Below the pieces are notes generated by a model that worked only from the letters and a program-made list of their open reading frames with translations, had not been told where the DNA came from and did not search any database. Positions 3,489 to 47,977 of a DNA stretch of 58,118 bases are shown piece after piece. How positions within the stretch are numbered: position 1 is the stretch's first letter; every line of letters starts with the position of its first letter. A program made the position numbers and the translations under genes. Source of the stretch: a virus (Duplodnaviria; Caudoviricetes); IMG/VR virus record IMGVR_UViG_3300023272_000003, positions 1 to 58,118 of that record. One strand, 5' to 3'.

Positions 3489-3677
3489 GCGGCACGCAGG
3501 GAGCCCGCACGCTAACTTGTCCAGTGTGCGGGCTCCGGTATCGACGAACAAACTGGATGAACCGAACAGGAAACAGGGCTGTCAAAACACCGGGAGGGCG
3601 ATGGCTTGACGACTCACATCAGATAGCGTGCTATTATGGCCGCAAGACACAGACTACAGAGGAGCAGGAGGAACCGA

Positions 3678-3890
3678 TTGCCAAGACGACCCATCCCCCC
3701 AGAGGAGCGGAAGCGCGCTCCCGGCGGAGGACGAAAGAAGACCCTGCCCGACACGACCGACCTCCATGTAAATATGCCGACTGCCGACGTAGAGGAGATG
3801 GATCGGCTGCGGGGCGACCTCACCCGTAGCGAGTTTATCCGGGCGGCGGTGCGGGAGAAGTTGGGGCGTGAGCAACAGGCGGAGGAGTAA
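3678..3890 (+). CDS. ribbon-helix-helix (CopG-like) regulator with basic GGGRKK hook
   Basis: LHVNMPTADVEEMDRLRGDLTRSEFIRAAVREKL; TTG start after AGGAGG. Confidence 0.75.
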   Translation: MPRRPIPPEERKRAPGGGRKKTLPDTTDLHVNMPTADVEEMDRLRGDLTRSEFIRAAVREKLGREQQAEE

Positions 3891-3980: not shown

Positions 3981-4205
3981 ATGACTGTGTTAAAGATAAT
4001 CACTCCCGGCACAGACAGCCGGTATACCCTCACCAAGAGCGGGAAGTTTCTACGCTGCCGGTTGTGCGGGCGGCTGTTTTCTAACGAAACATTCAGCCCC
4101 AAGCACCTGCACTATACGATATACTGCTCTGTAACGGGCATAGGGAGTGGGAAGCCTATTGAGGCTATGCGCTCCGTTGGTGGGGCGAAGGAGAAGAGAT
4201 TATGA
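3981..4205 (+). CDS. hypothetical protein with CxxC
   Basis: GGAGG RBS; ATGA coupling to next ORF. Confidence 0.55.
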   Translation: MTVLKIITPGTDSRYTLTKSGKFLRCRLCGRLFSNETFSPKHLHYTIYCSVTGIGSGKPIEAMRSVGGAKEKRL

Positions 4206-4483
4206 CGATTGAACAACAGCAGCAGGAACGAGCAGAGCAGAAGGCAGCGGCGATCCAGGGGTTGCGACTTTTGTTGGCCGCACTGGAGACAGATGAGAAG
4301 AGTTACGCTGTGATGACCTGCCATGGAGCCGAAAAGGACGATTACGGCATAGAGTGGGCAAAGTGGGAACTTGGCGTCGTGTGGGGCAGCGCTGCGGCTC
4401 TGTATAAGGCAGAAGACGACGACCAGCCCGGCCACGACAAGGGCGGCAGCGGCGCATGGGGCGACCCGTTCAACCAGCGATAG
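4202..4483 (+). CDS. hypothetical protein
   Basis: Coupled ORF with AAGGAG RBS. Confidence 0.6.
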   Translation: MTIEQQQQERAEQKAAAIQGLRLLLAALETDEKSYAVMTCHGAEKDDYGIEWAKWELGVVWGSAAALYKAEDDDQPGHDKGGSGAWGDPFNQR

Positions 4484-4491
4484 GAGGGGCA

Positions 4492-4713
4492 ATGACCAAC
4501 GCATCGATCCCGTGGGCGAAAGTCCTCAATCCGACGCAAGTTCTGGCGATCACCACAGCCTACGAATCGGGATACGGGCACGGCCACCAGCGCCGGCATT
4601 TAGGCAACCCCTACGAGGAGGGAACGCCAGAGCATGAGGCGTACCGGATCGGCGTCAAGGAGGGGGAGGAGCATAGCCCCATACGGCCAACAGAGGAGGC
4701 GGGGAGTGAGTAG
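4492..4713 (+). CDS. Rmf/CrpP-fold-like small protein
   Basis: AYESGYGHG...NPYEEGTPEHEAYRIGVKEG resembles Rmf-like motif; AGGAGG RBS. Confidence 0.5.
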   Translation: MTNASIPWAKVLNPTQVLAITTAYESGYGHGHQRRHLGNPYEEGTPEHEAYRIGVKEGEEHSPIRPTEEAGSE

Positions 4714-4978
4714 CGAGACGAAACGGCGTGTGGCCGTTGCTGATCCGACCATGCGGCATACGTTCAAGTCGATTTTTGCGCCGAAACATCTGATGGGCAG
4801 ACTCTGGGAATGGACGCTACCTTGCGGATGTACCGCTTATAGGCGGGTACGGTACACGAAATCCCCAGGGGGCACGGCAGGAAATGCCTCCTCTTTTCGC
4901 CGTGCAAAATCCGACGCCCTGCCTGCTCCTCGGTATATCTGGCACGCCTGCAACAGCATTAAGGAGGATGGGCCTTGA
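4706..4978 (+). CDS. hypothetical protein
   Basis: GTG start overlapping previous stop; GAGG upstream. Confidence 0.45.
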   Translation: MSSETKRRVAVADPTMRHTFKSIFAPKHLMGRLWEWTLPCGCTAYRRVRYTKSPGGTAGNASSFRRAKSDALPAPRYIWHACNSIKEDGP

Positions 4979-4996
4979 GCGCCGCCCCACCGAGGC

Positions 4997-5026
4997 TTGA
5001 CTTCCTGGCCGACTGTGCGGTAGAAT
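4997..5026 (+). promoter_or_regulatory. sigma70 promoter for structured RNA and three-gene operon
   Basis: TTGACT-18-TAGAAT about 6 nt before the RNA closing stem. Confidence 0.7.
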
Positions 5027-5031
5027 GGTGG

Positions 5032-5150
5032 CGTCAAAGTCCCTTGTGCGAAATCCATCACGGCAGAACAAAATTTCAGATTGTGGCCTGAGTCTCGCAA
5101 GGATTCCGGCTACCAACACGACGCATCCTGATGGATTGGGGACTTTGACG
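5032..5150 (+). ncRNA. C4/CI-like structured antisense RNA
   Basis: CGTCAAAGTCCC/GGGACTTTGACG and AATCCATCA/TGATGGATT stems, inner hairpin, two unpaired segments complementary to downstream leaders. Confidence 0.7.
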
Positions 5151-5208
5151 ATTTCCTAATTGCTGACGGGATGCGTCGTGTTTTATTTTGTCAGGAGGAG
5201 TTCGCGAA

Positions 5209-5463
5209 ATGGCAAGTGATCTTATCTTAATCGAATCGCATGAAACGAACGGCGTAGAGTGGGGCATAAGCACGGATGGCCCTAACCCCACCCCGGAAAA
5301 CTACATCAAATGCCGCAATGAGGGACACGCCCGGTACATTGTGGCGCAGTACAATGCGGGGCTTATGACGCCCTTCCTGATTGCCGCCGGTGCCACGCAG
5401 GGAACGTTCGGGGACGGCATAGCCGAAGCGAGATGGATCAAAGCGAACGGTTACTCTGTCTGA
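5209..5463 (+). CDS. hypothetical protein
   Basis: AGGAGG RBS inside repeat 1. Confidence 0.7.
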   Translation: MASDLILIESHETNGVEWGISTDGPNPTPENYIKCRNEGHARYIVAQYNAGLMTPFLIAAGATQGTFGDGIAEARWIKANGYSV

Positions 5464-5497
5464 CGCTCCGTGCGTCGTGTTTTTGTCAGGAGGTGAA

Positions 5498-5764
5498 ATG
5501 ATAATTTCAGACGAAGAGGCGCAGAGGATCAGAGAACACTGCCGTATGAAGGTCGGCCTCTCACTGGTGGAAATCAGACATAAGTCAACCGATCTGTGGT
5601 TTATGTCTCAGACCGATGTGTTAGAATTTTCCAGAGATCACCTCGCCTGCATGCAGGAATTTGTGCAGGGCATGCAGGCGGAACTCGACTCAATTCAGCG
5701 ATCCATGAACGATGCAGCCGCGCTCAAAAAGCAGTGTAAAAAGGCTTTCGGCCCGGACGCTTGA
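5498..5764 (+). CDS. hypothetical protein
   Basis: AGGAGGTG RBS inside repeat 2. Confidence 0.7.
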   Translation: MIISDEEAQRIREHCRMKVGLSLVEIRHKSTDLWFMSQTDVLEFSRDHLACMQEFVQGMQAELDSIQRSMNDAAALKKQCKKAFGPDA

Positions 5765-5812
5765 CACTTGCGGATGGGTGCGTCGTGCTTTTGTTTGGGA
5801 GGAGGTTGGGAG

Positions 5813-6082
5813 ATGGGCTACTGTGTCACGATACCAGAAGAGAGCGTCGTCGGTTTTGAAGTCCGGGCGGAGTCCGTCAGGATCTCGCGAATGTGGCTTC
5901 GAGATGAGCAAGGCGAAGAGGCCAGGGAGGCTGATCCGATCATCTTTACTTCTAAAGGGTCGGCAAACTCCGTAGAGATTGAAAAGGAGTTTCTTGCGCG
6001 TGTGCTGGCGTTCTTCGACAATCCAGAGAATCGGCGGCTCTGCGATTTGGAAGTGCCCGCGCCGTTGCCGACAGGAGAATAG
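5813..6082 (+). CDS. hypothetical protein
   Basis: GGAGGAGG RBS inside repeat 3. Confidence 0.7.
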   Translation: MGYCVTIPEESVVGFEVRAESVRISRMWLRDEQGEEAREADPIIFTSKGSANSVEIEKEFLARVLAFFDNPENRRLCDLEVPAPLPTGE

Positions 6083-6093
6083 ATTCACTGCTC

Positions 6094-6122
6094 TTGACTC
6101 TGCCCGTCAAATCTGGTAGAGT
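6094..6122 (+). promoter_or_regulatory. promoter for replication-initiator-like gene
   Basis: TTGACT-17-TAGAGT followed by leader hairpins at 6151-6178 and about 6190-6212. Confidence 0.55.
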
Positions 6123-6217
6123 CGCAACCAGACAACCACAAATGGCGAACGCGCCAGGGAATTACCAGTTCCCGGCGCGCTCTATTCCACCACCTTTGGA
6201 CAAGAAAGGCGGCAAGA

Positions 6218-7369
6218 TTGAATACATCTTACCACAGCAATACTGTTACGTCAACAGTAGACGTTTCCCTAGTTTGTCGGCCCCTGCGCCGCACCCTCTC
6301 GTTTATCGCCTCCCTGACGCGCCGTCGCGGCTACTGCTATGCCGGATGGGACTTTCTCGCGTCGAAGCTCGAATGCTCCACCAAGACCGTACGCCGTCAT
6401 GTGGCGCGCCTGATCGCCTCCGGTATCCTGCGTGTCGAGCAGATCCGCAACCTGCAGCCCCGGTTTTTTATTTGCCCTGAAAGTGTCTGGAATGTGGGCA
6501 CTGTTTGTCCCGATTCTGTCCCTGCTCTTCCTATAGAGGGAGAAGTGAAGCAGAAAAGCAACAAACAGCCAGGGCGCAAGCGCACCCCTGCGCCGATCAC
6601 CGCCCAGGCCGAAGCATCTCCTGTTGTTTGTTCTTCGGCAAAGCCTCTTGAGACGGAGAAACCCCAAGCGGTTGAGACGGTCTCTGTCGTTGAGACGGAA
6701 ACCCAAATTGGCATCACGCACCTATCTGCCATTTCTGCCCAAGAGGAGACTGCCGAGGACGTGGCGGCACTCCTGCGGGCATCGTTGGACGCCGCAGGAG
6801 AGGAGATGCAGGCTTTGGAGAGTGGTGAGAGCCTGGAAGAGAGTGCGGCCGTTTACTGCAATAAAGAGAATTCAGAGGCAATTATAACGGCCGCAACTCA
6901 CAATATAGCCCCGGCCGCTGTCGAAAACATGACGGCCGCTGTACCGGCGCTGCAAGTACGGCCGTATTCTGACACTCCTCCAAAGCCCCAACCCCAGCCG
7001 CTCACGCCGGAACAGACCGCCATCATGCAGGCGCTGGTGCAGGCCGGGGTAGCGCCAGGACAGGCCCGCCAGATGGTTCAGCGTGACGCCACGAAGGCGC
7101 AGGAGGTGATGAAAGCCTATCGGGCCGAGGTACAGCGGGGGCGGGAGATCGAGAGCGCTGGTGGCTGGATCTGGAGCCTATGGAACCGGGAGGGGTTTCG
7201 GTACGTGGAGCGGGGGCAGAAGGCCGCGCCGTCCCACCTCGCGAAAGACCAGGGGTTGCGGATCGTGCCGACGGGCACGGGAGACCGCGGGGCAGCGCCG
7301 CCCGCCAGCGGGGCAGAGGTCTTGGCGGCCCTGCGGCGACGGGGCTTTGGCACGAGCGCCAGGGCGTGA
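6218..7369 (+). CDS. replication initiator-like protein (N-terminal winged HTH)
   Basis: GYCYAGWDFLASKLECSTKTVRRHVARLIASGILRVE is HTH_36-like; low-complexity linker; C-terminal helical domain with IESAGGWI. Confidence 0.65.
   Translation: MNTSYHSNTVTSTVDVSLVCRPLRRTLSFIASLTRRRGYCYAGWDFLASKLECSTKTVRRHVARLIASGILRVEQIRNLQPRFFICPESVWNVGTVCPDSVPALPIEGEVKQKSNKQPGRKRTPAPITAQAEASPVVCSSAKPLETEKPQAVETVSVVETETQIGITHLSAISAQEETAEDVAALLRASLDAAGEEMQALESGESLEESAAVYCNKENSEAIITAATHNIAPAAVENMTAAVPALQVRPYSDTPPKPQPQPLTPEQTAIMQALVQAGVAPGQARQMVQRDATKAQEVMKAYRAEVQRGREIESAGGWIWSLWNREGFRYVERGQKAAPSHLAKDQGLRIVPTGTGDRGAAPPASGAEVLAALRRRGFGTSARA
6226..6254 (-). promoter_or_regulatory. antisense promoter inside start of rep-like gene
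   Basis: TTGACG-17-TAAGAT with TGn extension; palindrome TACTGTT-5-AACAGTA over the -35. Confidence 0.65.
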
Positions 7370-7395
7370 AAAAAGATTGAAAATAAGTGCCGTGC

Positions 7396-7428
7396 GCTAT
7401 TGACAATAGCTATCCGGTTTGGTATAAT
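7396..7428 (+). promoter_or_regulatory. consensus sigma70 promoter B with palindromic operator
   Basis: TTGACA-17-TATAAT; GCTATTG-A-CAATAGC centred on -35. Confidence 0.85.
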
Positions 7429-7458
7429 AGATATATCAAACAACGGAGGCATTGACCA

Positions 7459-7821
7459 ATGAGACAAGAGAGATGGTTCAGTAATTCGGTGTATAAAGCT
7501 ACCGAACTCTGCGCGTTATACGGAGTGACAAATGCGCTTGAAGAAGCCATAGCAAAAAAGGCACTTGGCGCCTGCTGTTTTTGGCAGAAAGTCATTGATA
7601 CACTGGAGACTATCCGCGACGGTGCAATCGAGATTCTGGATGCCGATGGGCACGAGGCACAGATATATGCAAGTTCCCTAAAAACTCGCCTTATAGACTA
7701 CCGGGGCGCCCTCATGATATACACAGTCACACAGGCAGAGTTCTGGAAATACTTCCAAAAACATATTGAGCAGTTCATGGCTTCAGCACATACCGAAGTG
7801 TCCGGGGAAATCAATAAGTAG
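7459..7821 (+). CDS. hypothetical protein
   Basis: Leader ACGGAGGCATTGACCAATG identical to that of ORF 3002. Confidence 0.7.
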   Translation: MRQERWFSNSVYKATELCALYGVTNALEEAIAKKALGACCFWQKVIDTLETIRDGAIEILDADGHEAQIYASSLKTRLIDYRGALMIYTVTQAEFWKYFQKHIEQFMASAHTEVSGEINK

Positions 7822-7881
7822 ATTAACAGCGGTTGCCAGATCCGCAAAAACTGGCATTCCTTCTATAGAAAGGCAAACCTC

Positions 7882-8148
7882 TTGACGGACGACACCCGAC
7901 CCGACCGATTCACCGAGCACCAGCGCAAAGCCGGGAGCGCCAAGACAACACGCAAGGCGGCCTCTTCCCGGCAGAACCTGCCCAACGGAGGCGGCAGGCC
8001 CACCGGGGCACTGAACAAGAGCGTCAAGCCCTGCCTGGGGCCGGATCACTGTCCTGGCGGCGTACACCGGCAGCCTTGCCCGGTCTACCGCCGGGAAGCA
8101 GCGGCCCGCAGTCGGGAGGCGAAGCGCAAGGCAGCAGAGCAGCAGTGA
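7882..8148 (+). CDS. small basic CCHC protein, paralog 1
   Basis: GSAKTTRKAASSRQN..GGGRP; C-x5-C-x4-H-x3-C. Confidence 0.65.
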   Translation: MTDDTRPDRFTEHQRKAGSAKTTRKAASSRQNLPNGGGRPTGALNKSVKPCLGPDHCPGGVHRQPCPVYRREAAARSREAKRKAAEQQ

Positions 8149-47905: not shown

Positions 47906-47977
47906 TGCCGTGGGCGGGACTCGAACCCGCGTTGCTCAGTAAACTACCGAGTGTCCTGACCACTAGACGACCACAGT
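47906..47977 (-). tRNA. degenerate tRNA (Glu/Asp-type body, GTT at anticodon position)
   Basis: 72-nt cloverleaf with GTCTAGTGGTCAGGAC D-arm and GGGTTCGAGTCCC T-arm; A33/T37, A1-C72 mismatch, no encoded CCA. Confidence 0.65.

Follow-up and report, generated by a model that had tools for sequence, protein, structure and literature searches.

A structured leader RNA complementary to tags before three small genes of an uncultivated phage: a candidate antisense regulator resembling c4 and CI

Why would three unrelated small genes of a phage carry the same element of about 20 nucleotides (nt), here called a tag, immediately before their ribosome-binding sites, and why would both halves of that tag be complementary to unpaired segments of an RNA encoded just upstream? 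This question is raised by positions 4,997 to 6,082 of IMG/VR virus record IMGVR_UViG_3300023272_000003, a module that consists of a promoter, a structured leader RNA and three tagged genes. The whole virus record (58,118 bp) was analysed and is referred to as the window; it is bounded by direct terminal repeats, which indicates a complete phage genome. The phage is uncultivated, and the module is known from this one metagenomic genome. Judged by the chance tests described below, the complementarity pattern is real and highly non-random. The reading that we favour, with chances that we would put at about even, is that of a convergent c4/CI-like leader antisense RNA that would silence a tagged three-gene array.

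The head of the module is made up of the following elements.

4997-5026, plus strand: sigma-70-like promoter with TTGACT (4997-5002), an 18-nt spacer and TAGAAT (5021-5026), matching 10 of 12 consensus positions.
5032-5150, plus strand: structured leader RNA of about 120 nt, comprising stems P1 and P2 and the central hairpin P3.
5032-5044/5138-5150, plus strand: stem P1, 13 pairs, 12 of them Watson-Crick (inverted repeat I10 of the repeat finder, 12/12).
5052-5060/5129-5137, plus strand: stem P2, 9 pairs.
5067-5074, plus strand: recognition segment a' (AACAAAAT), mostly in the loop closed by a weak 3-bp multiloop hairpin.
5083-5113, plus strand: inner hairpin P3.
5115-5128, plus strand: recognition segment b' (AACACGACGCATCC), a single-stranded junction leading from P3 to the 3' strand of P2.
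5153-5168, plus strand: single-stranded, A/U-rich linker (ATTTCCTAATTGCTGA) that joins the RNA body to tag 1.

The original prediction had proposed a promoter followed by a fold at 5032-5150 with closing stems of 12 and 9 bp, an inner hairpin and two unpaired loops, and all of these elements were found as placed, with a thirteenth, non-Watson-Crick pair added to P1. The fold of 5031-5152 has a minimum free energy (MFE) of -48.2 kcal/mol and a z-score of -3.67, a stability reached by none of 200 shuffled sequences. In the partition function, the mean unpaired probability is 0.81 for a' and 0.77 for b', so that both segments are mostly exposed within the closed structure. The predicted transcription start, at about 5032-5034, coincides with the foot of P1, and for this reason 5' processing may be unneeded. 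A covariance model built from this single sequence, R1, scores 166.8 bits at 5032-5150 and finds no second copy on the same strand.

Downstream of the leader, each of the next three genes is preceded by a tag and a strong Shine-Dalgarno (SD) sequence.

5169-5191, plus strand: tag 1, with b site 5169-5182, a site ATTTTGT (5185-5191) and SD GGAGG at 5194-5198.
5209-5463, plus strand: small gene 1, encoding an orphan protein of 84 amino acids (aa).
5471-5486, plus strand: tag 2, with b site 5471-5481, a site TTTTGT (5481-5486) and SD at 5489-5493.
5498-5764, plus strand: small gene 2, encoding an orphan protein of 88 aa that is predicted to be all-helical.
5776-5795, plus strand: tag 3, with b site 5776-5787, a site TTTTGTT (5789-5795) and SD GGGAGGAGG at 5797-5805.
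5813-6082, plus strand: small gene 3, encoding an orphan protein of 89 aa.

From 5' to 3', every tag consists of a b site with the core TGCGTCGTG, a gap of 0-5 nt and an a site (TTTTGT), which is followed after 1-2 nt by the SD. The leader presents a', hairpin P3 and b' in that order, and therefore a tag and the leader could pair, collinear and antiparallel, in a single duplex from which P3 protrudes on the leader's side. It had been claimed that the complements of the two loops occur in antiparallel order before the SD of the next three genes, and this is borne out by the repeat finder: b' 5115-5128 is complementary to 5169-5182 at 14 of 14 positions (I6), 5115-5125 to 5471-5481 at 11 of 11 (I16), and 5117-5128 to 5776-5787 over 12 nt at 92%, where the sole exception is a G-U pair (I17). 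Segment a' is complementary to the (A)TTTTGT(T) of every tag. The predicted duplexes comprise 9-14 plus 6-7 bp, and relative to the three start codons they span -40 to -18, -27 to -12 and -37 to -18.

As direct repeats, the tags form family D1, three copies of 30 nt spaced by 295 and 312 nt with 63-80% identity over the 30 nt, and a U-rich tract follows immediately on every b site (GUGUUUUAUUUUGU, GUGUUUUUGU and GUGCUUUUGUUUG). Tags 1 and 2 have common CTGAC...GTCAG arms that enclose the tag, and a small hairpin followed by a U run is present in each of the two; tag 3 does not have this arrangement. A GACG..CGTC mini-hairpin had been suggested for each tag, which hardly holds for tag 3, where the GACGC..GCGTC pair encloses a loop of 21 nt. 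At tag 2, the stop codon of gene 1 marks the beginning of a 6-bp hairpin (5461-5477). In local folding, the three tag regions do not surpass shuffled sequences in stability (z 0.14, -0.38 and -0.73).

Is this pattern specific to the module? Exact copies of the 9-mer TGCGTCGTG number three on the plus strand and one on the minus strand, with none elsewhere in the 58 kb. When one mismatch is allowed, 17 copies are found as compared to 18.2 in shuffles, and because this equals the shuffle level, only the exact copies are special. One such mismatched copy, at 4373-4381, was rejected as a chance occurrence: it lies inside the coding region 4202-4483 and is followed by neither TTTTGT nor an SD. The composite pattern TGCGTCGTG-N0-3-TTTTGT has two matches in the genome and none in 100 shuffles, tag 1 being missed because its gap is 5 nt. 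TTTTGT as such is present 22 times, and TTTTGT-N0-6-GGAGG-N3-14-RTG three times, which are the three genes.

An approximate interaction energy, which adds the cost of opening the RNA and the target to the duplex energies of both loops, gave a similar picture. In this accessibility-corrected ranking of 99 sites with an SD and a start codon on both strands, the three tag sites take ranks 1 to 3 (tag 2, -17.0; tag 1, -14.9; tag 3, -12.4 kcal/mol), against a background in which the next site reaches -9.5, the median is -0.2 and the standard deviation is 5.0. Furthermore, a layout scan for 8-mers that precede two or more SD sites by at most 35 nt and have a reverse complement at most 1.5 kb upstream returned four overlapping k-mers in the window, all from this module and on the plus strand, and none on the minus strand. 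Applied to nine related phage records, the same scan found nothing in eight, and in the ninth only an artefact caused by the palindromic GGAGCTCC. Looser tools were less informative. A k-mer test requiring at least two direct copies and one inverted copy within 2.5 kb returned 75 mostly chance matches in the window, and it is not specific because among the 60 of these 75 matches that were listed there are four 9-mers with three direct copies. RNAcofold has no means of keeping the closing stems closed while the loops pair with a target; it yielded a value for tag 1 alone (-6.8 kcal/mol), and that only with P1 and P2 opened.

The three open reading frames (ORFs) behind the tags are coding-like: in each, its own frame scores best of the six under a codon model trained on the recognisable genes of the phage, in addition to the strong SD that precedes it. 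None of the three proteins belongs to a Pfam or PHROG family, and no recognised toxin family was found for these proteins of 84-89 aa. Among 5.8 billion proteins, those of genes 1 and 3 retrieved only themselves, and against 1.84 billion representatives the product of gene 2 retrieved, apart from itself, only three long (repeat) proteins as weak matches. Look-alikes from the ESM Atlas scored below 0.9, with none credible for gene 3. The AlphaFold model of the gene 1 product is poor (predicted local distance difference test, pLDDT, 43), while that of the gene 2 product consists of three helices (pLDDT 73.9) and has no Foldseek match at E<=0.001. Neither the look-alikes nor the models gave any further clue to the proteins.

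On the favoured reading, we infer the following course of events in vivo. Transcription from 4997-5026 would start at the foot of the very stable fold of about 120 nt, which would keep a' and b' single-stranded while the same transcript runs on into the three small genes. Pairing of a tag with b' and a' would create a three-way junction abutting the SD, and this junction may block binding of the 30S subunit and invite cleavage, so that all three genes would be silenced jointly. Tag 1 would be blocked first, in cis, and action in trans would follow as the stable leader accumulates after its release in the A/U-rich linker at 5153-5168, which we infer to be a candidate 3'-processing site.

How closely does this design follow known phage RNAs? 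According to the annotation of phage P1, its promoters are followed by c4 (77 nt), the site a2 4 nt after c4 and the site b2 10 nt before icd, a gene of 73 aa, and the c4 RNA folds into a long closing stem with two inner hairpins. The pairing in P1 is also collinear and antiparallel, because a2 (TTGACAG) has its counterpart in the 3' junction CUGUCAA, and b2 (TGTTAGTG) in the hairpin loop CACUAAC. Loops a' and b' of c4 are described as binding the mRNA, with b' partly occluding the ribosome-binding site (PMC5320573), and structurally similar RNA systems are described for P4, P1, P7 and N15 (PMC3632133). The present module resembles c4 of P1 and P7 in having an RNA encoded at the head of the operon that would be under its control. 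As in P1 c4, the ends of the RNA form a closing stem around inner hairpins and two exposed recognition elements, and a bipartite site lies in its own transcript before the first small gene, although here such a site is present three times. The gap from the end of the RNA to the start codon is also comparable, 51 nt in P1 and 59 nt here.

The two systems differ in dimensions and in arrangement. The RNA has about 120 nt here as opposed to the 77 nt of P1 c4, and tag 1 lies 19 nt after the stem, whereas a2 lies 4 nt after c4. The order of elements is a', hairpin, b' here, and hairpin, b' loop, a' junction in P1. The recognition elements measure 9-14 plus 6-7 nt here and 8 plus 7 in P1, and the target halves are 0-5 nt apart in contrast to 22 nt. 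Three genes are tagged separately here, whereas P1 has one tagged gene and a translationally coupled downstream gene. The 5' end of the present RNA probably arises from initiation, as predicted, while that of P1 c4 arises from RNase P cleavage. Finally, P1 c4 controls icd/ant in the immunity region of a temperate phage, whereas here P1 Icd gave no alignment with any of the three small proteins at E<=100, nor do these have a Pfam or PHROG family.

A search with all 4227 Rfam families over 4900-6300 at E<=10 gave four weak and unrelated matches, none of them C4 and none at threshold, and the C4 model RF01695 alone had no match anywhere in the genome at E<=10, while it gave P1, which served as positive control, 68.8 bits (gathering score, 45 bits). 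Judged by the family's own test, the RNA thus does not belong to Rfam C4. What survives of the proposed C4/CI-like antisense RNA is thus the layout, which parallels the annotated c4-a2-b2-icd of P1, and not family membership; from this comparison, the likeness of the RNA to P1 c4 is probably convergent rather than a sign of kinship.

Two further comparisons are instructive. The CI RNA of the satellite phage P4 has more than one target site per transcript, and this RNA and the small processed RNA of the phage-plasmid N15 control termination upstream of replication or antirepressor genes in temperate elements. The present module is similar in that a small RNA, predicted to be derived from the leader, would act on complementary sites in the same transcript, and the U-rich tracts after each b site would suit termination. 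It differs in that its sites are located at ribosome-binding regions and nothing shows lysogeny. Type I toxin-antitoxin systems are comparable insofar as a small RNA is predicted to block the expression of adjacent small proteins. Here, in contrast to these, the RNA and its targets are on the same strand and share one transcript and promoter, with no overlapping antisense gene.

The surroundings of the module contain the following features.

3636-3890: ribbon-helix-helix (RHH) gene in the upstream flank (RHH_1, 3.6e-05).
6094-6122, plus strand: second promoter, located before the replication-initiator-like (Rep-like) gene and outside the module.
6218-7369, plus strand: Rep-like gene, the downstream neighbour outside the module (helix-turn-helix family HTH_36, 6.4e-07; several PHROG replication-initiation families).
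47906-47977, minus strand: tRNA gene (43.2 bits), the sole Rfam match in the whole window at gathering thresholds.

The module sits in a block of small genes transcribed rightward, between the RHH gene and the Rep-like gene. Recognisable products in the window include the large and small terminases, the portal, a helicase, a DNA methyltransferase and a GDSL lipase domain, and most window ORFs lack a family assignment. No integrase, partition protein, repressor or recombinase was recognised among the scanned ORFs, an absence that counts for little because the ORF calls are crude. The original prediction had also suggested a second immunity or antitoxin-like role and a tag doubling as a recombination point, and neither suggestion gained support. 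The gene upstream of the promoter ends at 4713, which leaves a gap of about 280 nt (4714-4996) with no coding signal in any frame and an unremarkable fold (z +1.0), and a 114-aa ORF at 4634-4978 looks spurious. Downstream, a perfect consensus promoter, TTGACA-17-TATAAT with an upstream TG, is present at 7400-7428 before the gene 7459-7821. Taken together, the predicted promoters at 4997, 6094 and 7400 suggest a host with a canonical sigma-70.

Several observations weigh against the favoured reading. Firstly, the targets had been described as bipartite ribosome-binding-site targets, and while the sites do lie directly before the SD, the duplexes only abut it, stopping 1-2 nt before it and leaving the SD itself uncovered, whereas b2 of P1 lies over the ribosome-binding region. 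The sign of the regulation is, moreover, not readable from the sequence. Secondly, the 3' end of the RNA is without a terminator or a known processing signal, and no RNA run with this sequence is listed, the sole listed run being a DNA run from which the record may derive. Thirdly, when the fold is extended to 5031-5230, the MFE is -73.4 kcal/mol and the loops pair in cis with tag 1 while P1 and P2 open. In this structure a b':tag-1 helix of 16 bp stands before the U run, GGCAGAA pairs with UUUUGUC, P3 is kept and the SD is partly paired. The leader is therefore able to engage tag 1 on its own transcript, and a free trans-acting RNA is not the thermodynamic default; as a b'-tag helix followed by a U tract is terminator-like, termination and cis-only mechanisms remain as rivals. 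Fourthly, in a cruder sliding duplex scan, a wide scan that is noisy in this G+C-rich genome, tag 1 came first among the non-self windows, tag 3 was level with chance windows at values near -30, and tag 2 fell outside the top 25. Finally, relatives were found neither for the RNA nor for the tags or the genes, and the structure and the pairing are thus without support from conservation or covariation. The closest complete relative, G001 (60.7 kb, with terminal repeats and a large terminase, TerL, that is 77% identical), is collinear with the window, yet it lacks the module and has different small genes between its RHH and Rep genes.

The search for relatives covered DNA, protein and RNA. A blastn search with 4900-6300 had no match among phages and plasmids, and the DNA of 4990-6100 found nothing real in five TerL-related records. 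In viral contigs no relatives of the three small proteins were found, and none of the Rep-like protein in viral and metagenome contigs. Model R1 had no match in 24 TerL-related records, a search of limited reach as most of these are fragments. The exact tag pattern had one viral, 28 metagenome and 12 genome matches, all of them single, with neither a second tag nor the reverse complement within 2 kb, and these counts are within the range estimated for chance. The viral match was rejected as a chance occurrence, as it lies inside an apparent coding region. Six of the matching contigs from metagenomes or metagenome-assembled genomes (L032, L038, L039, L042, L057 and L068) share a near-identical element of about 50 nt around their chance match, GGGGTGGCTCCACTTT...GGAGGGATCACGCG, which is unrelated to the module; one of these contigs is labelled Streptosporangiaceae.

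Comparison with G001 also yielded observations on the neighbouring replication region. The 5' leader of the Rep-like gene (window 6123-6226) is conserved in G001, where two copies (contig L031, 16578-16682 and 15882-15985, both on the minus strand) precede two tandem Rep-like genes. This Rep leader contains a GAACGCGCC...GGCGCGYTC hairpin, and a CCACCUU/AAAGGCGG helix would sequester an SD-like purine run before the TTG or GTG start; one compensatory pair is present among the three sequences. The first Rep-like gene of G001 (L031, 15991-16584, minus strand, 197 aa) has, as read from its translation, a C-terminal CxxC...HH...CxxC...H arrangement that is HNH-nuclease-like. Elsewhere in G001 (L029, 10923-11255), dense GGGACAGGT / ACCTGTCCC repeats in both orientations look like iterons or an origin.

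The strongest rival keeps the pairing and changes its output to transcription. In this model, which is possible yet in our view unlikely, b', the nascent tag and the U run would together form an intrinsic terminator from two RNA segments, in cis for tag 1 but in trans for the two later tags, and the dose of the RNA would set the read-through into the array and toward rep, as in the immunity RNA-dependent termination of P4. The b sites run directly into the U-rich tracts, as this model would have it, the 16-bp b':tag-1 helix of the 5031-5230 fold ends right before the U run, and a terminator scan flags tags 1 and 2, owing to their own weak hairpins; PMC3632133 also describes an RNA-based system in P4 with structurally similar ones in P1, P7 and N15. 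However, terminator-like sites are not enriched in 4000-8000 (8 as compared to 4.6 +/- 2.7 in shuffles), and the tag regions fold like shuffled sequences. The U tract is itself complementary to a', which fits pairing with a finished mRNA better than with an RNA held in an RNA:DNA hybrid, and the tags all lie 1-2 nt before an SD, as translational control predicts but termination does not need. A more speculative proposal, to which we give somewhat less credence still, combines the two outputs: the leader RNA would supply in trans the missing upstream half of a terminator as well as a clamp adjacent to the ribosome-binding site at every junction of the array, so that one RNA concentration may gate the transcription and translation of three cargo genes stepwise, together with read-through toward the replication initiator, as an independently evolved, modular address-tag system.

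It is improbable, in our judgement, that the leader, never being released, works in cis alone and gates only gene 1, perhaps on a signal, while tags 2 and 3 are copies of a favoured initiation region with no RNA partner. Such a mechanism would agree with the cis structure being about 12 kcal/mol more stable (-73.4 versus -48.2 plus -12.7), with the longest match being at tag 1 (14-16 bp) and with the finding of no 3'-end signal for a free RNA. It does not account for the pattern of similarity in tags 2 and 3, where the nucleotides retained beyond the SD are exactly those pairing with b' and a' while the flanks differ, nor for the single change in the extended b site of tag 3, A to G, which preserves a G-U pair. 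In addition, no Rfam riboswitch or leader family matched.

Alternatively, the four copies of TGCGTCGTG could be DNA sites, either operators for an RHH or Rep-like protein or the junctions of recombination cassettes, with the RNA fold being incidental. The RHH protein and the helix-turn-helix Rep-like protein do flank the region, and, like many gene cassettes, the three genes are orphans unrelated to one another. This is nonetheless a very doubtful explanation, since the halves of the inverted copy, which stand 40 nt apart, both coincide precisely with the two long unpaired stretches of a fold more stable than all 200 shuffles, and the spacing of about 300 bp with a fixed position before the SD is unlike iterons or operators. 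It is also at odds with the lack of a recognised recombinase among the scanned ORFs and with the single nature of all tag matches in other contigs, none of which carries a partner. Least credible of all, the tags could be functionless remnants of a local duplication of one initiation region and the leader complementarity a by-product, which would fit the lack of conservation support for a module unique to one metagenomic genome but not the combined rarity of a 9-mer in four places with both halves complementary in the right order and both in accessible loops, nor the confinement of tag similarity to the pairing nucleotides and the SD.

To conclude, if the favoured reading is true, the c4/CI design, in which a stable RNA at the head of an operon uses two short exposed segments to silence the genes behind it, arose more than once, and it is not confined to the proteobacterial phage family tracked by Rfam. 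The module would then represent a scalable form of this design, with the same tag of about 20 nt placed before several unrelated genes, and this tagged form would be simple enough for testing and for reuse as a compact RNA switch for multiple genes. If the address-tag proposal were true, any gene could be brought under control by gaining such a tag. The finding also points to a class of phage regulators that is invisible to covariance-model searches but may be reached by a layout-based scan.

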